Origin: Pseudomonadales bacterium
GTDB taxonomy: Bacteria; Pseudomonadota; Gammaproteobacteria; Pseudomonadales; JAUIET01
Direction: 5' to 3'
Assembly (NCBI GenBank): GCA_045106985.1
Contig: JBGCFQ010000024.1
Span: forward strand, 128,502 to 192,501
DNA: 64,000 bases
In this document: piece by piece, positions 12,587-28,077 of the stretch
How the letters are laid out: each line of letters opens with the position of its first letter
Position numbering within the stretch: the stretch's first letter is position 1
The notes under the pieces: model-generated
Told to the model about the DNA's origin: nothing
Seen by the model: only the letters and a program-made list of their open reading frames with translations
Database searches by the model: none
Translations under genes and position numbers: made by a program

Positions 12587-14104
12587 ATGAATACGGTAAA
12601 AAATAAACGCTTCACGGTGCCAGCCACCGACATCGAATCGCAACAAAGAAGGCCGCGCCTGCGCGTCCATCCTACGTTGCTCGCCCCACTTTTAAGTCTG
12701 TTTCTGTTCGGTCAATTCAGCCAGGCCGAAACATCTGCTCAGCAGCCCTCTGACTCGGAATCCTCATCTACTTACGTAACCGCCCCGCAACCGGAGGTGA
12801 GTGACAGCGTCAGCGATGCCAATGACCCAAGGTTTGTAAGAGACCAGTACGTGCGAGAAGTAGAGTTGTTGCAGGCACAGTACGGAGCGTACAACAGCGA
12901 GCTGGCTGAGGCCCTACAAGGGCTGGGCGAAGCTCAACAACGGCTTGGCAAACATACTGACGCTATTGAGACACTCAAACAGAGTGCTCACATCACTCGA
13001 ATTAATGAGGGCCTCTTTGCTCCAGCGATCATGCCGATGCTCAACGCCATGGTTGAAAGCTATGCGCATTTGGGCGATTGGGAAGCTGTCGATGACCAGC
13101 ATCACTTCATGATGGAAATTAACGGAGCTAACTACGGCTGGAATGACGAGCGCATGTTGCCAATATTGGACAAGCTTACTCGCTGGCATATGTTCGCGTT
13201 TTTTGAGGCGGTCTCACCAGAGCCTTCGCATCATTTGCATATGGCGAGGTCGTTGTTTTCAGCAGCTTCAAGGGTAATAGAACTCAACTTTGGTCAATAC
13301 GATTTACGCCTGGCGAAGCAGCTACGCGGGCGCCGTATTGCTGATTATTACCTGGCGAGCATTATGGCCGACGAAGCCGAAAGCCAGTTGCGCCTTGAGC
13401 GCATGCAGAGTATCGGCAGAGACGAGAACTTCCGATTCGCTCAAGGAACAAGGACAATTTCACAAGGTTATTTGTCCGGGCTGCGTAGTTCGCGCCATGT
13501 AGTCGATATTTATGAGAACAATGATTCGGCCAGACCTGAAGAAGTGGCGGAAGCGATGGCTGAGCTAGGTGATTGGTATCTCCGCTTTAATAAACGTCAA
13601 TCGGCTATACGCACCTACCTTGACGCCTATAGCTTGTTGAGTGAAAACGCAGAAACAATCGCAATTCGAGATCGGATGTTTGGCCGACCCAAGGTGCTGG
13701 ATTTCGCTACCGATTACTCAGATTACCTAACACCCGCCGGAAAAAAACTATCAACAGGTTATGTTTTACTAGAGCTGGACTTAACCAAAGCCGGGTTGGT
13801 TAGCCGGGCGCAGTTTATTGAAGAGAAGCCGGCGCAGCCTTCAATGCGTCGCCGCGCGTTGCGCGAGCTTCGTAGCCGCCGTTTCAGGCCAAGGTTTGAG
13901 GACGGGGCACCAGTGCCTACGGCGGCGCTTAAGTATCGTTATCGCTACGAATACGCAGGACCGCCGATCTCCGCTTCGAGCAGCGAGCCAAAGCAGGCTA
14001 CTCAAGTAGATAAAGCTGAAGGGACAAAGCTCGAGAATAAAGCCGCTAGCTCAAAACCTTTAAAAGATCATTCGCCCGAAGGGGATTCCGATGCCACATT
14101 GTAA
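12587..14104 (+). CDS. signal-peptide TPR-like helical protein with TonB C-terminal-like domain
   Basis: N-terminal hydrophobic segment ending 'FSQA/ET', then TPR-like helices (for example 'ELAEALQGLGEAQQRLGKHTDAIETLKQS'). The C-terminal 'GYVLLELDLTKAGLVSRAQFIEE...RFRPRFEDGAPVP..LKYRYRYEY' resembles the TonB_C beta-alpha-beta pattern. Confidence 0.45.
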   Translation: MNTVKNKRFTVPATDIESQQRRPRLRVHPTLLAPLLSLFLFGQFSQAETSAQQPSDSESSSTYVTAPQPEVSDSVSDANDPRFVRDQYVREVELLQAQYGAYNSELAEALQGLGEAQQRLGKHTDAIETLKQSAHITRINEGLFAPAIMPMLNAMVESYAHLGDWEAVDDQHHFMMEINGANYGWNDERMLPILDKLTRWHMFAFFEAVSPEPSHHLHMARSLFSAASRVIELNFGQYDLRLAKQLRGRRIADYYLASIMADEAESQLRLERMQSIGRDENFRFAQGTRTISQGYLSGLRSSRHVVDIYENNDSARPEEVAEAMAELGDWYLRFNKRQSAIRTYLDAYSLLSENAETIAIRDRMFGRPKVLDFATDYSDYLTPAGKKLSTGYVLLELDLTKAGLVSRAQFIEEKPAQPSMRRRALRELRSRRFRPRFEDGAPVPTAALKYRYRYEYAGPPISASSSEPKQATQVDKAEGTKLENKAASSKPLKDHSPEGDSDATL

Positions 14105-15101
14105 AATTAAGGTTGTAGCAATATGTGCCTTGCTGGCTGTCTCGGCCTGTAAAGAAAAAGATGAGGAACAGGGCGGTGGTTCGGCAGTGGATCAGGGCAG
14201 TGTTCAAGAGAGTCATTCAAAGCCAGAAGCAAGCGCGTCAACAGCTGAACCTGGGTGGGAAGACGAGAGAGGTGAAGGGCTACCAGGCTTAGGCCAGGGC
14301 GGCAAAAGCGATACGGGCGCGGCGCAACGAGCATCAGATGAAAGAGAGATAGGCCATCGCCTGCCGCCTGCGGCTCCGCAAGCATCAGCCGGCGCTGGAA
14401 CTGGTAACGGACCATTCGGTGGTGCTACTGAAAGTGCCTCTATACCGCTGCCGACAGTGTTCAATGACGGCGACTACGACGTTGATGCTGGCTTGGAAGA
14501 CAGTGACTTTGATGTTGGCATTTCTGTGCCAGGCATTGGCTTACCTAGTATAGGTTTGCCCGGAATGGGTTTACCGGGTGGTGGAAGTTCAGGTGGCATG
14601 GGCGCGCCTAGCGCCGGTCTGCCTGGCGGAAGTGGTGGTGTTGGCGGTTTGGATGATGCTCTTGATGCATCGTTAGAAGACTTTGATGGCGTGGTTTTGG
14701 CAGGTAAAGACGGGGCCCGTGGAATGGAGAATTCAGGTGCTGGAAGTTCATCAAGCGGAGCCGCGAGTAGTGGCAAAGGCGGTGGAAAGGGCGGCGCGTC
14801 TGGTGCCGGTGGTGGCCAGGGAGGAGGGCAATCTCGAATTCCCCCACCACCCTCTGAGTCAGAATCTTCGAGCGGCGGGTCAGGCGGCGGTGGGGAGTCA
14901 GCCAAAGGCGCGAAAGGCGGCCCTAGGGGCTCCAACTCTAAAGGAAAGCAGCCAAACCCGGCTCCAGCCGACTTACAAGATGGCGACGACGATGATCTGA
15001 TTGCGCGCCAAATTAGAGAGGCCGCTGAAAACGAAGAGGATCCTGAATTGCAGGAAAAACTTTGGGACGAATATCGTAAGTACAAGAATGGTCAACGTTA
15101 G
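14091..15101 (+). CDS. lipoprotein with long Gly/Ser/Asp-rich low-complexity region
   Basis: Lipobox 'LLAVSAC'. Repeats 'GIGLPSIGLPGMGLPGGG' and 'GGGKGGASGAGGGQGGGQ' are followed by a conserved-looking acidic C-terminal helix. The start overlaps the upstream gene by 14 nt. Confidence 0.6.
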   Translation: MPHCKIKVVAICALLAVSACKEKDEEQGGGSAVDQGSVQESHSKPEASASTAEPGWEDERGEGLPGLGQGGKSDTGAAQRASDEREIGHRLPPAAPQASAGAGTGNGPFGGATESASIPLPTVFNDGDYDVDAGLEDSDFDVGISVPGIGLPSIGLPGMGLPGGGSSGGMGAPSAGLPGGSGGVGGLDDALDASLEDFDGVVLAGKDGARGMENSGAGSSSSGAASSGKGGGKGGASGAGGGQGGGQSRIPPPPSESESSSGGSGGGGESAKGAKGGPRGSNSKGKQPNPAPADLQDGDDDDLIARQIREAAENEEDPELQEKLWDEYRKYKNGQR

Positions 15102-15191
15102 GCGCCTGCTGGGCTTAACATTATTAACAATGGAAAATCCGTATTTGCCAAGATTTCCAGTTAGTTTCGCTAAAGACTTTGAGAATTACCC

Positions 15192-16403
15192 ATGAGTATT
15201 TCAGTTAAACGCCTGTTAAGCATCGTCGCACTGCTGCTTATGCAAGCTTGCTCTACAACAAACGTAAAAACATCAGATGTACATTTGCTGGATATGGCCC
15301 AGGAGGTGATTCCAGAACATTTACTGTTGGATGTTGGTATCAATATTTTTGATCCGGGTTTGGATTCCGCGGGAGATGATTCGAGCTTGTTTCCAGAAGT
15401 TCGTGAGGGCGAAGCCCGCTATCTGCCATTCAATTTAATGGAGACAATGCAAACGTCTGGTCATTGGGGCGCGGTCCGTGTGGTGCCATCAGAAATTGCA
15501 GCGGTTGATGTGCACGTTAATGGCAAAATACTGGAATCAGACGGTGAACGGTTATTTTTGCAACTGACCGTGTCAGACAGCACTGGTAACTTATGGTTTG
15601 ACCGTGAGTATAAGGAAGTCATTTCTGATTTCGTCTATAAGAAGCGACGGGCTGGCGAAGAGCCCTTTCAATCAATGTATAACCGCATTGCCAATGACAT
15701 CGCTAGCCACCAGGCGTCCTTAAACGTAGCGAGCAAAAACAACATACGAACGGTTGCTGAATTGCGCTTTGCCCAAGATTTTGCCCCTGACGCCTTTGGT
15801 GGTCACCTGAGTATTGATGAAGAGGGTATTCTCTCCATTAAACGCCTTCCTAGTGAAGTAGACCCAATGATGCAGCGGATTCGAAAGATCAGAGATCGCG
15901 ACTACTTGTTTGTTGATACTTTGCAGGATTACTACGGCGTTTTTCATCGGCAAATGGACGTACCTTATCTAGAATGGCGTGAGCGCAGCTACGACCATGC
16001 CGTCGCGATTAGAGAGTTGCGAAAGTCTCGCTCTATGCGCGGTATTGCAGGCGCTGCAGCAATAATAGCGGGGATCATGGCGGTTGGCGGCGGCAATGAC
16101 TATGCTCGAGCTGGTGGCGGAGTCGGCATCTGGGCTGGCAGTAGTCTGATTGGCAGCGCTTTACAAAAAGGCCAGGAATTAGGCCAGCATCAAGCTGACT
16201 TCAATGAAATTAGTGAATCGGTGATTACGGCGATTACTCCGCAGGTTATTGAGCTTGAGGATCAAACTATAACGCTGAGTGGTACTGTTAGTGATCAATA
16301 CGGGCAATGGCGAGAACTGCTGCGTGAGATCTATCGGCGAGAGAATGGGATTACCGCCGGCGATGCCAGCCTAAAATCTCCTGCTGCGAGTGATGAAGGG
16401 TAG
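15192..16403 (+). CDS. lipoprotein with C-terminal glycine-zipper segment
   Basis: Lipobox 'LLLMQAC'. A glycine-zipper-like stretch 'GIAGAAAIIAGIMAVGGGNDYARAGGGVGIWAGSSLIGSAL' lies at about nt 16041-16163. Confidence 0.55.
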   Translation: MSISVKRLLSIVALLLMQACSTTNVKTSDVHLLDMAQEVIPEHLLLDVGINIFDPGLDSAGDDSSLFPEVREGEARYLPFNLMETMQTSGHWGAVRVVPSEIAAVDVHVNGKILESDGERLFLQLTVSDSTGNLWFDREYKEVISDFVYKKRRAGEEPFQSMYNRIANDIASHQASLNVASKNNIRTVAELRFAQDFAPDAFGGHLSIDEEGILSIKRLPSEVDPMMQRIRKIRDRDYLFVDTLQDYYGVFHRQMDVPYLEWRERSYDHAVAIRELRKSRSMRGIAGAAAIIAGIMAVGGGNDYARAGGGVGIWAGSSLIGSALQKGQELGQHQADFNEISESVITAITPQVIELEDQTITLSGTVSDQYGQWRELLREIYRRENGITAGDASLKSPAASDEG

Positions 16404-16411
16404 TATCGTCG

Positions 16412-18007
16412 ATGAGCGAACCCGGAAAGCACACAGATGCAGGAAGAACTGCGGGTACCGCAACTATCGACAGAGGCATTGGTTCGAATATTGAAAACCA
16501 CACTGAGATAGCGCCCCTCAATCTGGATTTTTCTGAACTTGACGCAGTTGACGACATAGTTGCTGGCGCCACTTTAGAGGCGGGTTCACAGAGAGCGCCG
16601 AGGTGGTTACTTGCCACAATCATTGGCTTAGTCATTGCCGCCGTAACAGTCATATTTGTGTTGCCAACCGCTTTATCTCCAGCTGACCAACTCGCTGAAC
16701 AGGATGTGGAAGCTGAAGCCATCACGGCTGACGTAGAAAAGATTGATGAGGGCTCACCTTTTCAAGAAGCCAAACTCGCGCAGCAACGTAAAAACGCGCA
16801 AGACTCGCTGGAGCAATTACTTGAGAAGCAACTCTGGCTGGAAAAACGCAACGTTCAATTGTGGGCGGATAAAGAGTACCAACGCAGTTTCGAGTTGGCT
16901 GCCGAGGGCGATGAATATTATCGTAATCGACAGTTTGAAAAGGCCAATAATCTCTATTCAGAAGGTCTGGCAATTGTTACGAATCTTTTGGAAGGTGTGC
17001 CCGATCGCATCGATCGAAATCTTAAAGCCGGATTAGAAGCATTGCTAGTCAATGATGCTGAGAACGCAGAACAGGCTTTTGTTTTAATTCAGGCGATTCA
17101 ACCAGAGCATGACGGGGCTGCAGAAGGGTTGCAACGTCTTGCGGTATTGCCGTCAGTTAGCAAAGCATTGCAATTAGCTGACCGCTATCAAACCGAGCAG
17201 CAATTGCCTAAGGCCTTGGGCGAATTGCGCACAGTCGTTGAGCTCGACCCAGTGCGCGAAAGCCTGCTGACTGAACGCATAGCTCAGTTGGAACAGGCAA
17301 TTTTGGATCGAAACTTTGAAGAACAAATGTCTCAGGGCTATCAAAGCCTGGATCAGGGGAATCGATCGGCAGCAGCCCAATTTTTTACCCAAGCGAGCAA
17401 ACTAAAGTCTGAATCTACTGAGCCAAAAAAGGCTCTAAGAATGGTGCGCAATCAGCAAGCTCTTAGTCGTATGAGCGTGCATATAGATGAAGCCCGAGTT
17501 CTGGAACGAGAAGAACAATGGGCTGATGCGGTGAAGTCTTACGATGCTGCATTATCAATTGATGCGAACTTGAGTGATGCGGCGAACCGTCGTGCCAGAG
17601 CTGTTACTCGCATGAAGATGGATCAAGCTTTGGTAACACTTAATGATGATCCGTTGCGCCTTGCCGACAACACGATATATGCAAAAGCCGCGAAAATTCA
17701 TGCGGCGGGAACTCGAGTATCTGCTGCGGGACCGAGATTGACGCAACAACTAGAATTGCTGAATAAACAGTTGCAAGCATCTCGAATTTCACTTCCAGTG
17801 CTTATTGAATCTGACGGCTTTACTCAGGTGGCGCTTAGCCGCATTGCGCGTTTGGGTGTTCTTCAGCAGAAGAATTTATCATTGATACCTGGTCGATACG
17901 TAGTAACTGGGAGCCGAGACGGCTATCGCGATGTGCGTCGCGAATTTGAGGTGCCGCAGGGCGCTAGAAATGTACGAGTGGACATTCGTTGTGTCGAGCA
18001 AATCTGA
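16412..18007 (+). CDS. bitopic inner-membrane TPR-repeat protein with C-terminal PEGA-like beta domain
   Basis: A cytoplasmic N-tail is followed by a TM helix 'WLLATIIGLVIAAVTVIFVL' and a long TPR-like helical region. The C-terminus is 'LIPGRYVVTGSRDGYRDVRREFEVPQG' (PEGA-like). Confidence 0.5.
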   Translation: MSEPGKHTDAGRTAGTATIDRGIGSNIENHTEIAPLNLDFSELDAVDDIVAGATLEAGSQRAPRWLLATIIGLVIAAVTVIFVLPTALSPADQLAEQDVEAEAITADVEKIDEGSPFQEAKLAQQRKNAQDSLEQLLEKQLWLEKRNVQLWADKEYQRSFELAAEGDEYYRNRQFEKANNLYSEGLAIVTNLLEGVPDRIDRNLKAGLEALLVNDAENAEQAFVLIQAIQPEHDGAAEGLQRLAVLPSVSKALQLADRYQTEQQLPKALGELRTVVELDPVRESLLTERIAQLEQAILDRNFEEQMSQGYQSLDQGNRSAAAQFFTQASKLKSESTEPKKALRMVRNQQALSRMSVHIDEARVLEREEQWADAVKSYDAALSIDANLSDAANRRARAVTRMKMDQALVTLNDDPLRLADNTIYAKAAKIHAAGTRVSAAGPRLTQQLELLNKQLQASRISLPVLIESDGFTQVALSRIARLGVLQQKNLSLIPGRYVVTGSRDGYRDVRREFEVPQGARNVRVDIRCVEQI

Positions 18008-20093
18008 ACAAACCGAAACAGGCCTTAGCGCTGCGCCGAATGCAACGATTATTGAACCCGTTGCATTCGAGCCAATGGGTGAGCAGGAATTCGCCGCAGG
18101 GCCCGCAGCGTTATGGCCCAAGGCACTAATAGGACTATTTTTTCTGCTTACGGCCTTGGTGTTGTTTTTTCTGTTTACGGCCCGATCCGTATTGATTGAG
18201 CCACAATACAACGGTACTGCTGTCAACAATGCGAAATTTGAGTTAAGTGGCGGAATACATCTTTGGTTTGGCGGCCGTTTCTTGGTTCGCCCTGGCGCGT
18301 TTAGCGCATCAGTAAGTCACCCAGAATACAAAACCGCCAGTCTCGGTTTTCACGTTACTCAGGAGCAACAACAAAGCGTTGTTATCGAGCTGCAGCGAAA
18401 ACCCGATGTGTTTGATGTGAGTACTACACCGCCTGAGGCCGAGGTACTTGTTGATGGAGAGCTAGTAGGCACCACACCATTGATGGGCCTGTCGATAGAA
18501 GCCGGTTCCCGCTCTCTGAGCTTGCGCCACCCTCGCTATCTGCTGGTCGAAGAAGAGCTTCAGGTTGAAGGAGGAGGTAATACTGTCGCTCGAAGTTTTA
18601 ACCTTGAGCCCGCTTGGGCCGAGGTAACTGTTGATACCTTGCCGCAAGGGGCGACAGTGTTTTCTGATGAACGCGAGATTGGTAAAACGCCGCTCACGGC
18701 AGAAGTTTTTCAAGGGCTTCGGCAACTAAGCTTCCACCTTAGTAAATTCAAAACCTCAAGCCAGGAACTGAATGTGATGGCCGGCGACGCTCTTCAGCTG
18801 GAAACAGTCGTGTTAGATCCTGCTGATGCAATGCTGGCATTGGAAAGTACGCCGCTCGACGCCGGCGTATTGGTTAATGGCGTTTACAGTGGCCAAACAC
18901 CCGTAACCGTCGCGCTGAAAGCCGATGAGAATTCTGTAGTGGAGCTGTTTAAACAAGGATATAAAAAGCAAAGTAGAGCGCTAAGCTACTCCGCCGGAGA
19001 GCAGCAGGCTTTGAACATTGCTTTATCCCCGGCTCTGGGTCTAGTGACACTGAACGTCACGCCGGTAGATTCGAGTGTTAGCATAAATGGCCGTTCGCTA
19101 AGCACAAAGCAAACCCTGTCTAAGCGACTCAGTTTACCTTCTGTACCGCAAACTTTCAGGGTAACGCGCAAAGGTTACCTACCTTTTGAAAAAACTATCA
19201 CGCCGAGGCCTGGATTTAAACAAACCTTAAACGTCACTTTGTTAACACCTGCAGCGGCTAAGGCAGCGAAGATCAAATCAGTTTTCCGAAGTGCGGGCGG
19301 CCAGCAAATGCGCTTAATTAAACCCGGCCGAATAACTATGGGTGCTTCTCGTCGCGAAGCCGGCCGTAGAGCGAATGAAAATCTCAGACCGGTTGTATTG
19401 CAAAGACCATTTTATATTTCCGCCACTGAAGTGACCAATGGCGAATACCGAAAGTTTGATTTCAAACATTCCTCCAAGCGTGTGGAAGACAAAAGCCTAA
19501 ATGCTGACGCTCAGCCAGTGGTAAGAGTAGCTTGGGTAGATGCCGCGCAGTATTGCAATTGGTTGAGTGAGCAAGAAGGCTTGGCTCTGGTGTATGAGTT
19601 TAAGGAAGGAAAACTGACAAATGTAGACCAACAGGCATCGGGTTATCGTTTACCAACTGAGGCCGAGTGGTCGTACAGTGCTAGAAAACTGGGCAAAGAA
19701 ATGCTGAAATTTCCCTGGGGCCAGGAGTGGCCAGTGCCGCCTGGTAGCGGAAACTTCGCTGACATCAAAGCGAGCTACATTTTGGGGCGAACACTTCCTC
19801 ATTATGAAGATGGATATACAGCAAGTGCTCCCGTTGGAAAATTTACGCCTAATCAGTATGAGCTTTATGACATGGGAGGAAATGTCGCTGAGTGGGTACA
19901 CGACTTTTATGCTCCAGGTCAGCCTCCAGGTTCGAAAGTGGATCCTTTCGGCCCCAAGGAGAGTAATTACCACGTCGTTCGCGGATCCTCATGGCGGCAC
20001 GGTTCACTGGTAGAGCTAAGGCTTTCTTATAGGGATTATGCAGATCGAGGACGAGATGATCTTGGTTTCAGAGTCGCTCGTTATCTGGATTAA
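17970..20093 (+). CDS. membrane-anchored protein with about 5 PEGA repeats and a C-terminal FGE-sulfatase (SUMF1-fold) domain
   Basis: TM helix 'ALIGLFFLLTALVLFFLF'. Repeats include 'VSTTPPEAEVLVDGELVGTTPL', 'VDTLPQGATVFSDEREIGKTPL', 'LESTPLDAGVLVNGVYSGQTPV' and 'LNVTPVDSSVSINGRSL'. FGE-fold motifs are 'YRLPTEAEW', 'GNVAEWV', 'VVRGSSW' and 'LGFRVAR'. The start is uncertain (ATG 17970 overlaps the upstream gene). Confidence 0.75.
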   Translation: MYEWTFVVSSKSEQTETGLSAAPNATIIEPVAFEPMGEQEFAAGPAALWPKALIGLFFLLTALVLFFLFTARSVLIEPQYNGTAVNNAKFELSGGIHLWFGGRFLVRPGAFSASVSHPEYKTASLGFHVTQEQQQSVVIELQRKPDVFDVSTTPPEAEVLVDGELVGTTPLMGLSIEAGSRSLSLRHPRYLLVEEELQVEGGGNTVARSFNLEPAWAEVTVDTLPQGATVFSDEREIGKTPLTAEVFQGLRQLSFHLSKFKTSSQELNVMAGDALQLETVVLDPADAMLALESTPLDAGVLVNGVYSGQTPVTVALKADENSVVELFKQGYKKQSRALSYSAGEQQALNIALSPALGLVTLNVTPVDSSVSINGRSLSTKQTLSKRLSLPSVPQTFRVTRKGYLPFEKTITPRPGFKQTLNVTLLTPAAAKAAKIKSVFRSAGGQQMRLIKPGRITMGASRREAGRRANENLRPVVLQRPFYISATEVTNGEYRKFDFKHSSKRVEDKSLNADAQPVVRVAWVDAAQYCNWLSEQEGLALVYEFKEGKLTNVDQQASGYRLPTEAEWSYSARKLGKEMLKFPWGQEWPVPPGSGNFADIKASYILGRTLPHYEDGYTASAPVGKFTPNQYELYDMGGNVAEWVHDFYAPGQPPGSKVDPFGPKESNYHVVRGSSWRHGSLVELRLSYRDYADRGRDDLGFRVARYLD

Positions 20094-20108
20094 AAGGCTG
20101 AAAAAATT

Positions 20109-20459
20109 ATGAAAAAAAATGAGCCATTGCATTCGAAAAAATCACCAACAGGAATAATTTTGTTGCTCTGCGTCGCCGTTTGCTTGCCTTTTTCCCCAAG
20201 CTACGCACAGGACGATGAGGATTTTATTATTCTTGATGACCGTGGCGAGGGTTTTGAAGCTGAAGAAGGTGATGTGCCTTTGAGTGGGCGTAAACCACGA
20301 CCGAGTAATACCTTGCCGAACCGCTCCACTGAGAGTACGGCCGGAGCGGAGAAGAGGGACCGTGAGAACGACGTGCCAGCGCCACCACCACCGGTCCGCT
20401 TCGAGCCAACAGAGCGGGTCTCAGAAGATTTATCAGTGTCGTTTCCGGCTGATATTTAA
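20109..20459 (+). CDS. small secreted acidic/Pro-rich protein
   Basis: Signal peptide 'GIILLLCVAVCLPFSPSYA/QDDED'. 116 aa, lying between operon neighbours on the same strand. Confidence 0.45.
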   Translation: MKKNEPLHSKKSPTGIILLLCVAVCLPFSPSYAQDDEDFIILDDRGEGFEAEEGDVPLSGRKPRPSNTLPNRSTESTAGAEKRDRENDVPAPPPPVRFEPTERVSEDLSVSFPADI

Positions 20460-20510
20460 AATCGGAACACAGCTTAAAAGTATCAATCACGTGAGCATTT
20501 GGAAGAGAAC

Positions 20511-21308
20511 ATGAAAAGTAACTTGAGTCGCGAATTCATGTACCAGCTAATTGCGTTATTACTAGCAATTATCGTTGTACATACCGTGTACGTAGGGCTG
20601 ATAAGGCCTAATGCCGCAGAGCTTCTCGCTCACCAAGCGCAGCTACAAGCAGACGGAGGAGCGTATGTTCCTTCAAGATCGATCTATGTGGTACTGAAAG
20701 ACTTTGAACAGGAAACCTGCTTTATATTGGCTATCTGGGCGATTGCTATCATGGGCTTTAAAGCACGCAGTATCACCGGGCAGCGCCTTATGCTGGACCG
20801 AAGTTTGCTAAATATTAGCCCTGGCACAAGCATGCTTCCGGAAGACGCCCGTGATCATTCGCGTGCCTTGCAGGCACTTCCGCAGGAAGAAAAACAGAGC
20901 CTTTTACCCAGAGCACTGCTGATAGGTCTGCAGCGCTTCGGCTCTACGCGAAGCATTCAGGACGTAGCGACGGCTATCAAAGAGGTGTGTGAGAGTGAAG
21001 CCGACAGATTGGACTCCGAACTTGCGATGGTGCGCTACATAGCGTGGGCGATCCCTTCCATAGGTTTTATTGGTACTGTGCGTGGTATTGGCGCCGCGCT
21101 GGGTCAAGCGCACCAAGCGGTGGAAGGGGATATCTCGGGAGTAACCGCTAGTTTGGGCGTGGCATTCAACTCTACGTTTATCGCTCTAGTCGTTAGTATC
21201 CTAATAATGTTCTTAATGCATCAGCTGCAATTGCTGCAAGAACGCTTGGTGTTAGACAGTCAGCAGTATTGCGATACAAACCTAATGCCGCATTTACAAG
21301 TGCACTAG
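20511..21308 (+). CDS. MotA/TolQ/ExbB proton-channel family protein
   Basis: 'WAIPSIGFIGTVRGIGAALG' and 'LGVAFNSTFIALVVSILIMFLMH' match the conserved TM2/TM3 signature of MotA_ExbB channels. The ATG at 20511 is preceded by GGAAGAG. Confidence 0.8.
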   Translation: MKSNLSREFMYQLIALLLAIIVVHTVYVGLIRPNAAELLAHQAQLQADGGAYVPSRSIYVVLKDFEQETCFILAIWAIAIMGFKARSITGQRLMLDRSLLNISPGTSMLPEDARDHSRALQALPQEEKQSLLPRALLIGLQRFGSTRSIQDVATAIKEVCESEADRLDSELAMVRYIAWAIPSIGFIGTVRGIGAALGQAHQAVEGDISGVTASLGVAFNSTFIALVVSILIMFLMHQLQLLQERLVLDSQQYCDTNLMPHLQVH

Positions 21309-21328
21309 CACTGAGTTGGAAAAAAGCT

Positions 21329-22690
21329 ATGTATGACGCTGTAGTTGAACTGAACGATATAGATCTACCCATATGGCAAAGCGGTGACTCTTCTACATGC
21401 CCGGCGTTTGCCCTGCGTGGCGAAACAGGTCTTGTTTTTGGCCATGAGGCTCGTGACCAGGCACGGTTGCATCCTCTCAGGATTAATAGCCGGTTTATGC
21501 AGCAGCTTAGTTTGGTTGAAACGCCGGAGCTTAAACCTCATGCGCGTCATCATGCCGACTTAGCGTACCGATTTTTGCAGTTCGCTCATAGGGGCGCATC
21601 GGCGCCAGAACGTTGCGTTTTTGTTGTGCCGCCTAGCTACACTCAAGATCATATGTCTGTACTGCTTGGCGTTGTTAAACAATGCTCTTTTGACGCGGTT
21701 GGCTTGTTAGATCAAACAGTAGCAGTCGCCAGCCAAGAAGCTGCGCAGAGCAACGGTGTTTTCTGTGATCTACAGCTTCATCAGTTGGTGCTGGGCGCTT
21801 ACCACGTGGAAAATAATGACGTTGTTCGCGGTGCAACACAGAGCGTAGATCAGTTCGGTCTGCAGCCGCTCTATGAGCGATGGGTTCGATTGATAGCTCA
21901 AGCCTTTGTTAAGCAGTGTCGCTTTGATCCACTGCACGACGCAGCGATTGAGCAACAGCTGTGGTTACAACTGCCTGCTATTTTGCAAGAGCAAGCAAAT
22001 GATGAGATGTTCAAGTTTTCCTTGTTGAATAAATATTTGATCGAAATACCGCGTTCCGTAATGCTTGGGCCAGTGACGGAGTTGTTTGCACAATTGCAAC
22101 AAAGGTTGGTTTCATTCGATGGCGATAACGCAGAGTTACTATGCAGTGCTCGCTTAGCCAGCTTGCCTGGATTTCTGACGCTCGACAGTCGACTAAAAAG
22201 CGTTGCTCCAGATAGTGTTGCTAAAGCAGTAAGTAACTTTCAAAGCAAAATTTGCTCGAATACGGCTAATCTTCCGTTCGTTTGTAGATTGCCGATGGGT
22301 ACGCCGAATAACGCTGCTAATATTGCCCCAACTGCAGCCGTCAATCCGGACCCAAGTTCTAGTTCTAACGTAGTGAGGTCGGAAACTTTCGCGATTGACT
22401 ATTCAATAACGCACTTTGTATTGGACGGTGTCGCGCACCCGCTAAAGGAAAATCCATTGTTGCTGAATGGTTTGGGTGCAGCAATTGTTTGGTCGCATCG
22501 CGAAGGTAGCGTAGCGACAGCAATGGTTTCTCTTGAGGAGGGTCGTTGGAGTGTTAAGCGTCTAGATAACGCAGAGCTTTGGCTCAATGGCGAAATACTA
22601 TTGACAGAGTGCGAGGCTGTTCAAAAAGGAGACCGACTAAGTCTTGCAGAAGATGGAGCGGAGTTGAGCTTTATTAGACTCTTAGCGTGA
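21329..22690 (+). CDS. cytoplasmic Hsp70/actin-fold-like protein with degenerate nucleotide-binding loops and FHA-like C-terminus
   Basis: By-eye alignment to DnaK: 'DIDLPIWQS' vs GIDLGTTNS, 'GETGLVFGHEARDQARLHP' vs [17 protein letters not shown], 'VFVVPPSYTQDH' vs [12 protein letters not shown], and 'FCDLQLHQ' vs VYDLGGGT. The C-terminus 'WSVKRLDNAELWLNGEIL...GDRLSL...LSFIRL' is FHA-like. No TM helix or signal peptide. Confidence 0.45.
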   Translation: MYDAVVELNDIDLPIWQSGDSSTCPAFALRGETGLVFGHEARDQARLHPLRINSRFMQQLSLVETPELKPHARHHADLAYRFLQFAHRGASAPERCVFVVPPSYTQDHMSVLLGVVKQCSFDAVGLLDQTVAVASQEAAQSNGVFCDLQLHQLVLGAYHVENNDVVRGATQSVDQFGLQPLYERWVRLIAQAFVKQCRFDPLHDAAIEQQLWLQLPAILQEQANDEMFKFSLLNKYLIEIPRSVMLGPVTELFAQLQQRLVSFDGDNAELLCSARLASLPGFLTLDSRLKSVAPDSVAKAVSNFQSKICSNTANLPFVCRLPMGTPNNAANIAPTAAVNPDPSSSSNVVRSETFAIDYSITHFVLDGVAHPLKENPLLLNGLGAAIVWSHREGSVATAMVSLEEGRWSVKRLDNAELWLNGEILLTECEAVQKGDRLSLAEDGAELSFIRLLA

Positions 22691-22715
22691 TTTTTTCGCA
22701 TAGAGGTTCTCTGTG

Positions 22716-22740
22716 CATCCTAAATTTGCTTTTTAGGATG
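22716..22740 (+). repeat. perfect 9-bp inverted repeat (stem-loop) in the largest internal gap of the operon
   Basis: CATCCTAAA-tttgctt-TTTAGGATG. No T-tract follows it. Confidence 0.6.
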
Positions 22741-22801
22741 AGCAGTAAGTTGAGTTGCAAGAGCAAAGAAATAGAATCGAGACAGTGTTTATGAGTATCG
22801 A

Positions 22802-23887
22802 ATGAGACGAAAAAGAAACGCGACTACCTTTAACCTTTCCTTTCTCGATGTAATGTCGTGCGGGTTTGGTGCGGTCGTGTTGATTTTTTTGATTGTGGAG
22901 CACTCTAGCAGCACTCAGTCCAACGCTGCCAACACTATGGAGCTTGCTGAAGTAAATATGTTGGAGCGCGATATAGAACTGGAAGAACGGCTATCGGCTG
23001 AAGCCCGCAATGCGCTCCGCTTGGTTGATCTCGATATTGTTGAGGTCAGTGGCGCTTCGAAGCGTTTGGTTGACGAGCTGGAAAATCTTAAGGAAGAGCT
23101 AGCGGAGGAAGATTCTGACAGCCTTGCTCGTTTGGAGCATGTCAATCAGCTCAAGACTGAAATAAAAAACCTTGAGAAAGAAATAGAACGCTTACGCTCT
23201 TCGGATGAGGTAGGACAGGGGCGCCGCTCTCGGTTTGTTCGTGGAGAAGGTGAACGCCAGTATTTAACGGGATTGAGGGTTGGAGGACGCCGGATAATGG
23301 TCTTGCTTGATACTTCGTCCAGCATGTTAGACCGTACCGTTGTAAATATATTGAGACTCAGAAATCTGTCAGACGCTAGAAAACGGCAGGCTAAAAAGTG
23401 GCAGTCTGTTGTAGGCACGATGGATTGGTTGACCGCGCAATTCCCGCAGAGCAGTCAGTTTCAAATCTATTCTTTTAATACTGAAGCCAAACCAGTGATC
23501 GCAGACACGGATGGAGAATGGCTATCAGTGAGCGACACCGACATGCTTGAAGAAGCGATGGCGGAAGTCCGTCGCTTAGTGCCCGACGGCGGCACAAGCC
23601 TCGCCAACGCCTTTGAAGCGGTAGAGGGATTCGTGAGTCTGCCCGATAATATTATTTTAATCACTGATGGTCTTCCAACACAAGACAGCAGCCCCGGCAG
23701 CGGGAAGGTAAACAGTGAGAAAAGAATGCGTTTTTTCAGTAAAGCATTGAAACACCTGCCTGGCGGAATTCCCATTAACGTTATTCTCTCACCGATGGAA
23801 GGTGATCCAGCGGCTGCGGCTGCATTTTGGAATCTTGCCGTTGTTACCGGTGGCTCGTTCCTGAGTCCCTCTAAGGATTGGCCATGA
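22802..23887 (+). CDS. ExbD/TolR-like TM anchor - coiled coil - periplasmic vWA domain protein (paralog 1)
   Basis: N-terminus 'MRRKRNATTFNLSFLDVMSCGFGAVVLIFLIV' resembles the ExbD/TolR helix with its essential Asp (nt 22847-22849). A heptad-rich E/L/K segment follows. vWA MIDAS elements are 'VLLDTSSSM', 'GGTSL' and 'ILITDG'. Confidence 0.7.
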   Translation: MRRKRNATTFNLSFLDVMSCGFGAVVLIFLIVEHSSSTQSNAANTMELAEVNMLERDIELEERLSAEARNALRLVDLDIVEVSGASKRLVDELENLKEELAEEDSDSLARLEHVNQLKTEIKNLEKEIERLRSSDEVGQGRRSRFVRGEGERQYLTGLRVGGRRIMVLLDTSSSMLDRTVVNILRLRNLSDARKRQAKKWQSVVGTMDWLTAQFPQSSQFQIYSFNTEAKPVIADTDGEWLSVSDTDMLEEAMAEVRRLVPDGGTSLANAFEAVEGFVSLPDNIILITDGLPTQDSSPGSGKVNSEKRMRFFSKALKHLPGGIPINVILSPMEGDPAAAAAFWNLAVVTGGSFLSPSKDWP

Positions 23888-24876
23888 GATTCAGAAAGCG
23901 CGGCACCGAAGACATGAACGTCGCCTTTCTTGATGTGATTTGTTGTGGCTTCGGCGCCATCATACTATTGCTGTTGATCACCAAGATCATGGATCCAGCT
24001 GCGTTGGAAGAATCCCCACAGGACCAAGAAGCCGCCATCGCGAATTTACAAGAACAACTCTTTGAAATTCGGGGTGATGCCCGCGTATTGAATCGAGATT
24101 TAAACGCCAAGCGCGAGCAGCTCTCAGAGATTAAAGATTATGTCGCACGACTTCAGGGCGAACTCAGAGTATTGAAGGGCGAATTTGATGCAACCGATGA
24201 TGACTCGGCCACCAATACTTTGTTAGCGGGCGAATTAGCAGGGGCGCGCCAGACCTTAACCGAGGAAATGCAACGTTTGCTGGGTGAATCGTCACAGCGC
24301 TCTAATGATTTGATTGGTGGTATACCTGTTGATAGCGAATATCTTATTTTTATTATTGATACTTCAGGATCTATGGTGCAATCAGCGTGGTCGCGTTTGC
24401 AGCGCGAAATTATTGCAACCTTAGATGTTTATCCAGAAGTGAAAGGCATTCAGATAATGAATGATATGGGGAATTATATGTTTACCCGGCATCGCGAAAA
24501 GTGGATGACTGATGAGCCTCACCGACGTCGCGCCATCGTTCGTTCGCTGCAGAACTGGACGCCCTTTAGTAATAGTAGCCCGGTAGAAGGGGTGGAAGCC
24601 GCCATACGGACTTTTTACGAACCCGGTAAAAAGATCAGCTTGTTTGTATACGGCGATGATTTTTCCAGTGGCTCTATTCAAAGAGTATTGCTAACCATTG
24701 ACCGAATAAACCTGGAGGTCAAAGACGGGCAGCGATTAGTTCGAATTCACGCAGTTGGTTTTCCTCATTTGATCTCCGGGCGGGGGATGAAAAGCTCTGC
24801 TTCGCGTTTTGCTGCGTTGATGCGTGAAATGAGCTACCGTAATGGCGGTAGTTTTGTTGGACTGACACCGGAATAA
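23884..24876 (+). CDS. ExbD/TolR-like TM anchor - coiled coil - periplasmic vWA domain protein (paralog 2)
   Basis: N-terminus 'MRFRKRGTEDMNVAFLDVICCGFGAIILLLLI' (Asp at nt 23932-23934), then a coiled coil and the vWA motif 'FIIDTSGSM'. ATGA start/stop overlap with paralog 1. Confidence 0.7.
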   Translation: MRFRKRGTEDMNVAFLDVICCGFGAIILLLLITKIMDPAALEESPQDQEAAIANLQEQLFEIRGDARVLNRDLNAKREQLSEIKDYVARLQGELRVLKGEFDATDDDSATNTLLAGELAGARQTLTEEMQRLLGESSQRSNDLIGGIPVDSEYLIFIIDTSGSMVQSAWSRLQREIIATLDVYPEVKGIQIMNDMGNYMFTRHREKWMTDEPHRRRAIVRSLQNWTPFSNSSPVEGVEAAIRTFYEPGKKISLFVYGDDFSSGSIQRVLLTIDRINLEVKDGQRLVRIHAVGFPHLISGRGMKSSASRFAALMREMSYRNGGSFVGLTPE

Positions 24877-24880
24877 AAAC

Positions 24881-25936
24881 ATGAATGGAGTGTCTAAGTT
24901 GTTAATGAATAGAGTACGGGGGTTTCAAGTGCGGCTTGGCTTGCTGGTTGTGGCGACATTGGCTCTGGCGGCTTGCGCCACGAGCACTGAAGTCGACGTG
25001 AAAGGCACACAGGAGTTTCCAGTGCCATTGGTTGTTAGAGCCGATTTGCACATGGGCATCTATGTTCCAGAAGAGTTCGAATCTTATGTGTACGAAGACT
25101 ACGAAAAGGTAAAGAAAAAGAAGTCCAGAAGTGAAATAAGAGCGGCTAAGAAAATAGCCAAGAAAAAGGCGGAAGATCAAAAAAAGGCTGAGCAAAAGAA
25201 AGCCGAAGAAAAGAACGCCGAGCAAAAAGAGACAGAGCAGGACAAGGTAAATAAGAAGGCAGAACCCTCTAACGACGATGACTCTGATGCAGAGCAGGAA
25301 AAAGCAGCACCGGTATTATCCCTGGCTTCCGCTGATTCCGACGCCCAATTGCAAACTGACGCCGAGGAACAAGCAGCAACAGGAAAAAACACAGCTAATG
25401 CCAACGAAAGCACTGGCTCCGGCGCTGGCAGCTCGGTTGCGTCATCCGCCTCTGCAGCGGCGAAGGATGAATTGCGCTTAAAGTTTCGTATCAGCCTGGG
25501 TGAAGCTCAGGCGAAAATGGTACGCACAGTCTTTCCTGGCGTGTTTCGCCAAACGACGATGCTAGAGTCGCTGGCGCCGGAAAATTTGCCCGACGACATC
25601 GACTTTTACCTAGTGCCGAGTATTACCAAGGTTCAGTACACTACGCCGAAAACCACAAGGTTAAACGTCTATGAGATTTGGTTGCAGTACACGTTTACGA
25701 TTTATGATCGTCGTGGTGATGTGATTACGCGCTGGCGTGTGCCGAGTTATGGGAAAACACCAACGGCCTTCATGAAGTCTAAAGAAAATGCGTTGCAGAC
25801 GGCAACACAGATGGCACTTCGCGATTGCGGGGCGGCGTTTTCTACAGGGTTTAGAACGCAACCGGCGATAGCTCGCTGGCTGCAAGCGCGAGAAAAAAAG
25901 CTCGAGATTCAAACAACTCCTAAGGTAGCAATATGA
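24881..25936 (+). CDS. lipoprotein with Lys/Glu/Ala-rich disordered linker
   Basis: Lipobox 'LALAAC'. The region 'KKKKSRSEIRAAKKIAKKKAEDQKKAEQKKAEEKNAEQKETEQDK' is followed by a folded-looking C-terminal domain. Confidence 0.55.
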   Translation: MNGVSKLLMNRVRGFQVRLGLLVVATLALAACATSTEVDVKGTQEFPVPLVVRADLHMGIYVPEEFESYVYEDYEKVKKKKSRSEIRAAKKIAKKKAEDQKKAEQKKAEEKNAEQKETEQDKVNKKAEPSNDDDSDAEQEKAAPVLSLASADSDAQLQTDAEEQAATGKNTANANESTGSGAGSSVASSASAAAKDELRLKFRISLGEAQAKMVRTVFPGVFRQTTMLESLAPENLPDDIDFYLVPSITKVQYTTPKTTRLNVYEIWLQYTFTIYDRRGDVITRWRVPSYGKTPTAFMKSKENALQTATQMALRDCGAAFSTGFRTQPAIARWLQAREKKLEIQTTPKVAI

Positions 25937-26595
25937 AGCCTACTTACTTAGTAAAGAAACTCATGCTGGTAGTGCTATTGGTGCTCTCAACGGCCTGTAC
26001 CACCACAACGATTGACGAGTACCGACAAGAAGGCGTTGACCTGGTGGCTGGACGCTCTGTTGTCGTGTTGGGTCGCCGGCATACCAGTGGCGCTGTTACC
26101 GAGCCTTTTGTTACTTCCTGCATCTCATCGCAATTAGGCCGTGGAAAGAATCCCATCAGTGTGATTGGCGAGCAAGATTTTCAAGACAGATTGTACCCCT
26201 GGTTTGAGCCTAGAACCGCGCCTTTGCAACTCTCGCGATTGAAAACAGTATTAGCTAAGCCAATCATTGCCAATGAGATTAAGAATATGGGCCTGCAGTA
26301 CATTGTTTGGGTTGACGGCAGCACGCAACGAGGAGCAAGCGCCGGTGGAATGTCTTGTTCTATAGGCGTTGGTGGTGCAGGGTGTCTTGGCTTTGGCACT
26401 TGGGAAGATGATGGTGAGTATGAGCTTTCCGTTTGGGATATTTCGCAAGACAAACCGGTTGCTGAAATGAGCGCCAGCGCGGCGGGCGTTTCTTATATGC
26501 CGGCGGTTGTAGTACCGTTGCCACTAATCGCTCGAGTGAAAACCTCGGTCTGTAACGGCTTGGCACAACAGATCAAGCAGTTGTTTCCTGAATAG
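25933..26595 (+). CDS. lipoprotein, unknown function
   Basis: Lipobox 'LVLSTAC'. ATGA overlap with the upstream gene. 220 aa. Confidence 0.55.
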   Translation: MKPTYLVKKLMLVVLLVLSTACTTTTIDEYRQEGVDLVAGRSVVVLGRRHTSGAVTEPFVTSCISSQLGRGKNPISVIGEQDFQDRLYPWFEPRTAPLQLSRLKTVLAKPIIANEIKNMGLQYIVWVDGSTQRGASAGGMSCSIGVGGAGCLGFGTWEDDGEYELSVWDISQDKPVAEMSASAAGVSYMPAVVVPLPLIARVKTSVCNGLAQQIKQLFPE

Positions 26596-26604
26596 GAGCG
26601 TAGT

Positions 26605-28077
26605 ATGACTTCCCCAACGTCTTTGATTCATTTCTTACTTATAGCCCTCTTGGCTTGCGGAACCCTTTGGTCCGATGACGCTCTGGCGATGTCGGAGAAA
26701 AAAGCGATAAAAATTGGTAAGAAAGCGTATGAGCAAATCATCAACAAAAACCCGCCATACCCCGACGAAGAATTGCAAGCTTATGTTCGAGACATCGGAA
26801 ACAGACTGGCCTCTCACAGTGATTTAGCCGACAAACCCTGGCGCTTCACGGTGCTTGATGACCCCGCCATAAACGCGTTCGTTACACCTGGTTATTTCGT
26901 TTACGTGAATACCGGACTATTGACCTACATCCAATCCGAAGCGCAGCTAGCGGGCGTTATAGGTCATGAAATTGGTCACCTTGTGCGTAAGCACCCTGAC
27001 AGGCAGTCGACAGCCAATGGTTGGACCAAAGCGCTATCAACGATTGCTACGGTTTTGGTCGGTGTAACAACCGGCAGTGGTCAAGCTGCGAGCGGCGCGA
27101 ATCAGTTGGGCTCCTTAGCTGGCACCGCACTCGTTCGAGGTTACGGTCGAGATATGGAGTTGGAGGCTGACGAAGAAGGAGCGAAATACTTATTGGCCGC
27201 GGGTTATCCTCCGGAGGCCATGGTGGATGTGATCGCGGTGCTTAAGGATCAGGAGCGCTTTGCGCGGTTAAAGGCAAAAGAGAAGGGCGCTAGACCCATC
27301 GCCTACCATGGCGTGTTTTCCACTCATCCTCGCAACGACAAGCGATTACAAAATGCCGTTCGAGCTGTGGGCAGTCTGGACGAAGGCGTAGTTGAGCGCG
27401 GCCTGGACGGTGATTTTGAAGAGCATATGGAGGGTTTTAAATTCCTCAACACGCCACTGATATTCCGAACGACTGGCAGTCGCTATCTCAATCGGCCAAT
27501 GGATTTCACCCTGGCGTTTCCAAGCGGTTGGTCGATTAAGTCTAAGGGCTCTGTAATCCAGGCGAAAGGTGAAGGTGGCAAGGCGGTTATCCAAATGCGG
27601 ATCAAAAAGCTGGAGGAAGAAATAACGCCAGAAAAGTATCTTCGCGAAGTTCGGAATTTTAAAACGCTTGAAAATGGCGAGTCTCTGGATAATGAACATA
27701 TTAAGGGTTATTCGGCTATTGTTCCTGCAAACTCAAAATATCCGGCCCGAAGAATCGCTGTCATATTCCACAAGAAAAGGGCCTTCTTGTTCGTTGCTCA
27801 GCTCACCGACCCCAGTATCCCCGAAGCCTTGGCCAGCTTTTATGACACACTTTTTATGGCGAGTTTCTGGAGTTTCAGACCTCTAAACGAATACGATCGG
27901 TCAATTGCCTTATCGCGGCACATTAGTTGGTATCAAGCAGAGCAGGGCGTAAGCTTTGAAGCGCTCGCTGCAGCAAGCCCGATTAAGGAGTTTGCTGAAG
28001 AAGAGCTTCGCTTGATGAATGGCTATTACCCTTATGGCGAGCCTAAAGCAGGAGAATGGCTAAAAATTGTTCGCTAA
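26605..28077 (+). CDS. M48 family zinc metallopeptidase (probable lipoprotein)
   Basis: 'GHEIGHLVRKH' HExxH at nt 26965-26979, a downstream 'ELEADEEGAKYLLAAGYPPEAM', and a possible lipobox 'ALLAC'. AGGAG lies upstream of the ATG. Confidence 0.8.
   Translation: MTSPTSLIHFLLIALLACGTLWSDDALAMSEKKAIKIGKKAYEQIINKNPPYPDEELQAYVRDIGNRLASHSDLADKPWRFTVLDDPAINAFVTPGYFVYVNTGLLTYIQSEAQLAGVIGHEIGHLVRKHPDRQSTANGWTKALSTIATVLVGVTTGSGQAASGANQLGSLAGTALVRGYGRDMELEADEEGAKYLLAAGYPPEAMVDVIAVLKDQERFARLKAKEKGARPIAYHGVFSTHPRNDKRLQNAVRAVGSLDEGVVERGLDGDFEEHMEGFKFLNTPLIFRTTGSRYLNRPMDFTLAFPSGWSIKSKGSVIQAKGEGGKAVIQMRIKKLEEEITPEKYLREVRNFKTLENGESLDNEHIKGYSAIVPANSKYPARRIAVIFHKKRAFLFVAQLTDPSIPEALASFYDTLFMASFWSFRPLNEYDRSIALSRHISWYQAEQGVSFEALAAASPIKEFAEEELRLMNGYYPYGEPKAGEWLKIVR

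Follow-up and report, generated by a model that had tools for sequence, protein, structure and literature searches.

A deeply diverged TolQ-like channel gene in a Pseudomonadales genome, with two membrane-tethered vWA proteins as its probable motor partners

Flagella, TonB-dependent uptake, envelope maintenance by Tol-Pal, gliding, the type IX secretion system (T9SS) and Zorya defence are all driven by motors of the MotA/ExbB/TolQ type. To our knowledge, the B subunit of every such motor follows the ExbD/TolR/MotB plan or that of GldM. Here we analyze a channel (A) subunit gene at 20511-21308 (+ strand) of a 64,000-nucleotide stretch of Pseudomonadales DNA (the window; contig C17 of the genome assembly scanned, G000), the only one of the eight MotA_ExbB genes in that genome without an adjoining canonical partner. 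An earlier interpretation made from the letters alone, which we call the sequence-only reading, assigned the partner role to vWA fusion proteins encoded further downstream. We consider this well supported, although not proven: the vWA pair encoded at 22802-23887 and 23884-24876 is probably the Asp-bearing partner of the channel, with a probability of about 0.8.

The closest described systems are predictions by Williams-Jones et al. (Mol Biol Evol 2025;42:msaf138, PMC12204202), whose main text reports that genes for transmembrane (TM)-tethered vWA proteins tightly co-occur with tolQ homologues that lack tolR or exbD. The vWA genes are mostly heterologous pairs (their Fig. 4c-d), and the assembly proposed is a 'TolQ-like pentamer + TPH-vWA heterodimer' (TPH, transpore helix), in which AlphaFold 3 (AF3) places a conserved pair of transpore-helix Asp residues within the Thr ring of the TolQ-like pentamer. 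The example organism is Idiomarina loihiensis, and the evidence presented there is synteny together with AF3 models; a different vWA family is described as binding the side of TolQR-like motors. The idea of a vWA partner has already been proposed in that main text, and the present case adds no new principle to it.

Our locus shares with the TPH-vWA motors, as that main text describes them, a tolQ-like gene without a nearby tolR or exbD, two different vWA genes whose products have an Asp-bearing transpore helix, and a Thr ring in the channel. It differs in that the window and its Pseudomonadales-type relatives have an Hsp70-like gene between the channel gene and the vWA pair. The window channel belongs to the same family as that carried by Idiomarina, the genus of the published example. 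The family member at locus L100, 38% identical to the window protein, leads to Idiomarina proteins at 72% identity; it is 98% identical to a Pseudoalteromonas xiamenensis protein and also retrieves Alteromonas, Rheinheimera and Aliidiomarina. Gene order at the Idiomarina locus is PEGA/FGE-sulfatase, a 35-aa open reading frame (ORF), MotA_ExbB, VWA_2, VWA_2. The main text of Williams-Jones et al. makes no mention of an FGE-fold neighbor, of GldL or of an Hsp70-like gene, and a full-text literature search found no paper combining ExbB and vWA with FGE, PEGA or GldK. Our contribution is independent genomic support, in the form of co-occurrence counts and a test of trans-encoded ExbD, along with an inferred four-TM channel, an invariant PEGA/FGE neighbor and a lineage-specific cytoplasmic insert.

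The channel gene is a stop-free frame of 265 residues, and its ATG at 20511 agrees with the N-termini of orthologues better than does the TTG at 20499. The product matches Pfam MotA_ExbB (PF01618) over residues 132-249 with E 2.3e-15 (56.9 bits against a cut-off of 22.9; 58.6 bits in the genome-wide MotA_ExbB scan), in agreement with the sequence-only reading, which had seen here a single MotA/TolQ/ExbB-family gene of about 265 codons. Scores against the named NCBIfam families are far lower: 29.2 bits against a cut-off of 221 for TolQ (TIGR02796) and 21.6 bits against 135 for ExbB (TIGR02805). BLASTP to the TolQ of the same genome gives 24% identity over 93 residues (E 6e-4). Among 1.84 billion cluster representatives, 161 match at E <= 1e-30 and 1258 at E <= 1e-10, and full-length relatives reach down to about 34% identity among the matches listed.

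We placed the protein in a maximum-likelihood (ML) tree of 26 family members, the seven paralogues of the same genome, and TolQ, ExbB and MotA of Escherichia coli. All family members group together as a single clade with support 99/97, their common stem being 5.98 changes per column long, and the MotA clade is split from them at 97/92; rooted on MotA, the family falls on the ExbB/TolQ side and inside neither group. With its long branches and few references, the tree is firm on monophyly and separateness only. The phylogenetic placement that the sequence-only reading had suggested, run against TolQ, ExbB and MotA, leaves the protein clustering with neither TolQ nor ExbB. The AlphaFold 2 (AF2) model has a pLDDT of 89.3 and a pTM of 0.82, and its top 50 fold matches in the PDB are all TolQ, ExbB, MotA, PomA or ZorA chains, with TM-scores (normalized to the target) of 0.59-0.68 for TolQ, 0.57 for ZorA, 0.41-0.58 for ExbB and, lowest, 0.35-0.46 for MotA/PomA. 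TolQ of the E. coli TolQ-TolR complex (PDB 8odt, 9ddm) is the best match in sequence as well as in structure, and the sole PDB sequence matches of the family profile are two E. coli TolQ sequences (E 0.0014). The channel protein is a deeply diverged TolQ-like member of the superfamily, and not a TolQ, an ExbB or a MotA.

Within the channel family, conservation is highest in the pore-lining motifs, even with members down to 30% identity included. In TolQ and ExbB, the last two TM helices contribute a pair of pore-ring threonines (T145/T178 in TolQ; T148/T181 in ExbB). When the family profile is aligned to E. coli TolQ (chain 8odt_A), T189 of the window protein falls on T145 and T222 on T178. 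T189 (codon 21075-21077) lies in the TM2 motif SIGFIGTVRGIGAALG (residues 183-198; 21057-21104, + strand), and T222 (codon 21174-21176) in the TM3 motif AFNSTFIALVVSILIMF (residues 218-234; 21162-21212, + strand). These are the two peptides that the sequence-only reading had quoted as conserved channel helices, and they prove to be the best-conserved stretches of the family. Across 45 diverse members there is no variation at T222, P182, G185, G188, N220 and some further positions, and at least 90% retain T189 and R191; these last two residues are invariant in 28 locus-derived members. The TM2 pattern P-x-x-G-x-x-G-T-V-x-G-I is shared with TolQ, as are both pore threonines. Two further residues stand out beside the ring: R191 (21081-21083), an invariant Arg following the TM2 ring Thr (GTVRGIG) at a position where TolQ has Trp, and N220 (21168-21170), an invariant Asn ahead of the TM3 Thr.

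One element of the sequence-only reading has to be revised. It had assigned the protein a single N-terminal TM helix and two C-terminal ones, whereas we find two hydrophobic N-terminal helices, at about residues 9-31 and 68-84, which span residues 2-47 and 65-95 in the AF2 model. The profile alignment to TolQ does not cover the first of these and begins with the second, and an extra TM helix therefore precedes the TolQ-like three. This points to an N-in/C-in protein with four TM helices, made of a TolQ-like three-helix core plus one additional N-terminal helix. Residues 1-70 (20511-20720), which precede the TolQ-like core, comprise the extra helix together with some 35 residues of loop, and P33, E66 and Q67 are nearly invariant. 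The inferred four-TM count is MotA-like, while the rest of the protein is TolQ-like.

The surrounding row of genes offers the channel no canonical partner, as had been noted from the sequence. Pfam scans of all thirteen ORFs on the + strand from 12587 to 28077 gave zero ExbD or OmpA matches, even at E 10 where loosely scanned, and no MotB match among the operon proteins; no tolR, tolA, tolB or pal was found in the window operon by the same means. Across the whole genome the ExbD model has seven matches, none of them on contig C17. Among the operon proteins, vWA1 and vWA2 alone have a predicted membrane anchor with an acidic residue well within it.

vWA1 (22802-23887, + strand; 361 aa) and vWA2 (23884-24876, + strand; 330 aa) are the proposed B subunits 1 and 2. 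They are paralogues, as reciprocal tblastn and profile matches indicate, and an ATGA overlap joins the end of the first gene to the start of the second. Both follow one plan: a basic N-terminal tail, a transpore-type TM helix with an Asp (D16, codon 22847-22849, in vWA1; D17, codon 23932-23934, in vWA2), a long helical stalk, of about 125 residues in vWA1, and a periplasmic vWA domain carrying DxSxS, a metal-site motif. After the basic tail comes FNLSFLDVMSCGFGAVVLIFLI in vWA1 and MNVAFLDVICCGFGAIILLLLI in vWA2. The TM Asp is kept in 83/83 vWA1 and 87/87 vWA2 orthologues, within a nearly fixed motif, F-[SN]-[LI]-[SA]-F-L-D-[VI]-[MI]-x-C-G-F-G-A. Like TolR, both proteins are N-in and bitopic, with the Asp near the cytoplasmic end of the TM helix. 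vWA1 matches Pfam VWA_2 and VWA_3 at about E 1e-7, and vWA2 matches VWA_2 weakly. The vWA domain of vWA1 retrieves 51 vWA structures from the PDB at E <= 0.001, and the DxSxS residues D170, S172 and S174 are invariant in its orthologues. In the AF2 model of vWA1 a helix at 12-102 and a second at 107-138 are followed by a disordered linker and a confident vWA domain; if extended, the modeled stalk could reach about 18 nm and span much of the periplasm. Unlike TolR, the proposed partner is a heterodimer, and a vWA head borne on a coiled-coil stalk replaces the periplasmic domain that TolR has.

Conserved gene order supports the pairing of channel and vWA proteins. A close set of 80 loci, at 63-88% identity, was drawn from genomes of the Pseudomonadales, Cellvibrionales and Porticoccaceae type; at all 75 of them with enough downstream sequence, the channel gene is followed within 6 kb by the Hsp70-like gene, vWA1 and vWA2, in that order. 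The vWA pair also lies directly downstream of the channel gene in 10/10 distant loci; the distant representatives P0150 and P0123, on contigs of about 1 kb, stand outside these counts of channel context. In a phylum sample of 401 genomes from 212 genera, the channel family is present in 20 and vWA1 in 19, all 19 being among the 20, and the vWA family occurs alone in none of the 401 (Fisher p = 1e-31). The single channel-only genome is a 410-contig assembly with a partial open frame of 169 aa. We infer the partnership from this genomic evidence together with the structural evidence: the invariant TM Asp, the invariant synteny (75/75, 10/10) and the near-perfect co-occurrence support the vWA proteins in the role that the sequence-only reading had given them. 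The family is common in marine Gammaproteobacteria (Alteromonas, Pseudoalteromonas, Idiomarina, Rheinheimera, Porticoccaceae) and extends to a second proteobacterial class. The system is widespread and is now defined well enough for laboratory testing. An apparent natural fusion of channel and vWA1 at locus L101 was rejected, as a TAG stop is present.

The sequence-only reading had also pointed to an ORF intervening between the channel gene and the vWA pair. This cytoplasmic ORF (21329-22690, + strand), which has zero matches in Pfam scans and putatively an Hsp70-like or FHA fold, occurs in 80/80 close loci and in two genomes further off. It is missing from 8/10 distant loci and from Idiomarina, where the channel gene abuts vWA1. 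Where channel and vWA1 lie on one contig (18 genomes), the gap between their matched stretches is 13-24 nt in 15; in the other three, the window among them, insertion of the Hsp70-like gene widens it to 1.3-1.5 kb. The ORF is thus a lineage-specific insertion: without it, channel, vWA1 and vWA2 form one contiguous unit.

Several observations weigh against a channel-vWA motor. The co-occurrence counts are not phylogenetically independent, since 16/20 positives fall in one family and the positives cover 8/212 genera. In the window itself a 1.4-kb gene and a gap of 111 nt separate the channel gene from vWA1. A search for RNA runs containing the window sequence at 20000-25000 found none; only DNA metagenome runs hold it. 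The TM3 Glu of TolQ (E173; E176 in ExbB) aligns with a non-conserved Val in the channel family, and its ion handling may therefore differ from the canonical one; taken with R191 and N220, this sequence feature suggests that the ion pathway may be non-canonical. For the vWA proteins, hhalign of the TM region against the seven ExbD/TolR proteins of the genome sets Asp on Asp, but with E 0.2 and a probability of 0.3%; a PDB search with the vWA profile brings up no chain of ExbD, TolR or MotB, and the vWA N-termini have no match to Pfam ExbD (PF02472) even at E 10. We dropped the claim of statistical homology between the vWA TM helix and ExbD/TolR, these three comparisons being non-significant. 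What the helices have in common with ExbD/TolR is a basic tail, the pattern N-[LV]-x-x-hydrophobic-[LI]-D-V and the N-in topology, a likeness that is real at the level of motif and topology only. A loose TPH-like regular expression proved unspecific: over 6139 ORFs of the genome it gave 15 matches, which include both vWA proteins, four ExbD and one MotB.

In the model that we favor, the channel would be the A subunit of a non-canonical ion-driven motor of the 5:2 type, and vWA1 and vWA2 would serve as its B subunits in place of ExbD, TolR or MotB. One TM helix of vWA1 and one of vWA2 would be inserted in the pore of the A pentamer, bringing the two Asp residues into contact with the threonine ring formed by T189 and T222. 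Proton flow, with protonation and deprotonation of these Asp residues, would turn the ring relative to the heterodimer. The stalks could then transmit torque or pull to the periplasmic vWA heads, and the heads, via their metal sites, may grip a periplasmic or outer-membrane partner and so transfer force to the outer envelope. Likely candidates for this partner are the co-conserved PEGA/FGE-fold, TPR and lipoprotein members of the cluster. If this is true, this class of motors would gain one more output module, a heterodimeric B subunit that terminates in a vWA domain of the adhesion type.

It is possible that the channel works instead with a canonical ExbD or TolR encoded elsewhere, and that the vWA genes are mere neighbors. 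TolQR-ExbBD cross-talk is established in E. coli and provides a precedent for such a foreign partner, and the genome has two ExbD genes without an adjoining channel gene (C44:35253-35687 and C48:74107-74568). The TM helices of both orphan proteins, however, are identical to that of the ExbD in the TonB2-type cluster on C5, and from their sequences they are probably spare subunits of that system. The sequence-only reading had proposed looking for separate canonical loci, and these are indeed present outside contig C17: a genuine tolQ-tolR-tolA-tolB-pal-cpoB cluster on C48 and three exbB-exbD loci, namely a pair beside a TonB-dependent receptor on C3, the TonB2-type cluster with its ExbD on C5 and exbB-exbD-exbD-tonB on C12. 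Two motA-motB pairs lie on C13 and C23. We scanned seven other family-carrying genomes for ExbD and MotA_ExbB. In all seven, each ExbD match is within about 700 bp of a canonical MotA_ExbB gene, there is no orphan ExbD, and the family member never adjoins an ExbD. One of these carriers, a genome of 2.0 Mb that is 99% complete, has two ExbD genes only, each with its own ExbB or TolQ, plus the family member. As orphan ExbD genes are absent from the seven carriers, a trans-encoded ExbD is not the general partner of the channel family. Moreover, the vWA pair accompanies the channel gene in 19/20 genomes, and with a channel only about 24% identical to TolQ over 93 residues, partner sharing seems unlikely. 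We regard a canonical partner in trans as highly improbable.

The vWA proteins might also bind the pentamer from outside, as force transducers in the manner of TolA or TonB, leaving the pore empty or filled by an unrecognized small protein. The side-binding vWA family in the main text of PMC12204202 gives this arrangement a precedent, and the channel gene is always immediately preceded by a small ORF of low conservation (20109-20459 in the window; 35 aa in Idiomarina). Nevertheless, the vWA TM helices have an invariant Asp and, on direct reading, no His inside them and no SHLS/His motif of the TolA/TonB kind; the small upstream ORF is barely conserved (6/80 loci), and the hydrophobic segment of its product is free of acidic residues; and paired vWA genes fit the two B positions of a 5:2 motor. 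Side-binding is quite unlikely on these grounds. Finally, the channel could be a relic of TolQ/ExbB, degenerate or turned to a non-motor role such as that of a scaffold, with no ion-driven rotation. Its very weak match to named families (29 bits against 221 for the TolQ model) and the missing TM3 Glu would suit a relic, but the pore motifs are the best conserved across members down to 30% identity, a selection unexpected in a relic, and neither ring threonine has been lost, nor has the partner Asp of either vWA protein. There seems very little chance that the channel is a relic.

Comparison with the better known motors sets the proposed channel-vWA motor further apart. The channel differs from TolQ in scoring far below the TolQ cut-off, in lying outside TolQ in the tree, in its extra N-terminal TM helix and in its unconserved TM3 Glu. 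The window also lacks the tolA-tolB-pal context of Tol-Pal, the genome having its own tolQRAB-pal-cpoB on C48. The channel differs from ExbB in scoring below that cut-off and in having no ExbD on its contig, and from the MotA/PomA stator in having no adjoining MotB/OmpA gene and in standing apart in the tree, the inferred four-TM count being the only likeness. With ZorAB of Zorya it shares a MotA/ExbB-superfamily channel with a non-flagellar, non-Ton output and a fold matching ZorA at TM 0.57; the long C-terminal tail of ZorA is absent from the channel protein. The PADLOC ZorA model (505 positions) gives a marginal partial match (E 0.004) to residues 163-253, a stretch of 91 residues, and other Zorya models in PADLOC match none of the other operon proteins scanned. 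With only this marginal ZorA match in its favor, a Zorya or other defence system was rejected.

Beyond Tol, the nearest working analogy is PorLM-PorK of the T9SS, because the best named relative of the FGE-fold neighbor is GldK/PorK. The features alike between our locus and PorLM/GldLM with PorK/GldK of Bacteroidota T9SS and gliding are a 5:2-type motor, a long periplasmic bitopic B subunit and an FGE-fold neighbor. GldL and GldM models match no operon protein at E <= 0.01, and the likeness is therefore one of analogy and not of membership. The FGE-fold protein here is TM-anchored and has PEGA repeats, whereas PorK is a lipoprotein; the B subunits here end in vWA domains, unlike GldM/PorM, and the host is a gammaproteobacterium in which no other T9SS genes were seen. 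It is tempting to speculate that the channel and the vWA pair are the motor of a larger trans-envelope machine, laid out on the plan of the PorKLMN core, of independent origin in marine Proteobacteria, and driving some process of the outer envelope, for instance secretion, adhesion to or movement on surfaces, or envelope remodeling. The invariant core of such a machine would be a lipoprotein-like protein, the bitopic TPR protein, the PEGA/FGE-fold protein, the TolQ-like channel and the two TPH-vWA proteins. Built on analogy, this proposal is a tentative one, and we think it rather doubtful.

The genes upstream of the channel are conserved to different degrees. The membrane-anchored product of 17970-20093 (+ strand; Pfam PEGA and FGE-sulfatase) combines PEGA repeats with an FGE-sulfatase fold. 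Its best named relative is GldK/PorK, at E 9e-38 to TIGR03525, below the cut-off, and its gene precedes the channel gene, with only a small ORF between, in all 80 close loci, all 10 distant ones and Idiomarina. That small ORF (20109-20459, + strand) encodes a secreted or lipoprotein-like protein with a signal- or lipoprotein-like N-terminus and is poorly conserved by tblastn; the 35-aa ORF occupies its position at the Idiomarina locus L111. The conserved bitopic TPR gene (16412-18007, + strand; TPR_2 match) is present in 68/80 close loci, several of the others being cut by contig ends, and in most distant loci. Further upstream, a lipoprotein-like member without a Pfam match (15192-16403, + strand) is found in 65/80 close and 10/10 distant loci, and a low-complexity lipoprotein (14091-15101, + strand) is conserved only in its C-terminal ~45 residues. 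A TPR protein with a weak TonB_C-like end (12587-14104, + strand; TPR_12 E 4e-8; TonB_C E 0.0012, below cut-off) is accessory in Pseudomonadales-type clusters and occurs in 48/80 close loci.

Downstream of vWA2, two accessory lipoprotein genes (24881-25936 and 25933-26595, + strand) are present in 71/80 close loci and missing in the compact clusters (L100-L107 and L111). The row of genes ends with an M48 peptidase gene (26605-28077), which is found downstream in only 14/80 close loci and is therefore probably not part of the system. Besides the channel and vWA genes, the wider core takes in gene 15192, the bitopic TPR gene 16412 and, without exception, the PEGA/FGE gene; gene 12587, the lipoprotein pair at 24881-26595 and the M48 gene 26605 are accessory.

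A scan of the operon for promoters and terminators gave counts at chance level. The sole gap of more than 100 nt within the operon, the 111 nt at 22691-22801, contains a promoter-like match at 22750-22777 (9/12 positions), a degree of match that occurs here at chance frequency. Elsewhere in the genome, the exbB-exbD-exbD-tonB locus (C12:134020-135837) is a further case of a heterodimeric B-subunit arrangement, in which the first ExbD has Asn replacing the TM Asp (NITAFMNLMIVLV). DNA nearly identical to 20000-25000 of the window was found in only three 'plant metagenome' runs, all from one study, and weaker matches to this region come from marine, biofilm, macroalgae and coral-reef metagenomes.

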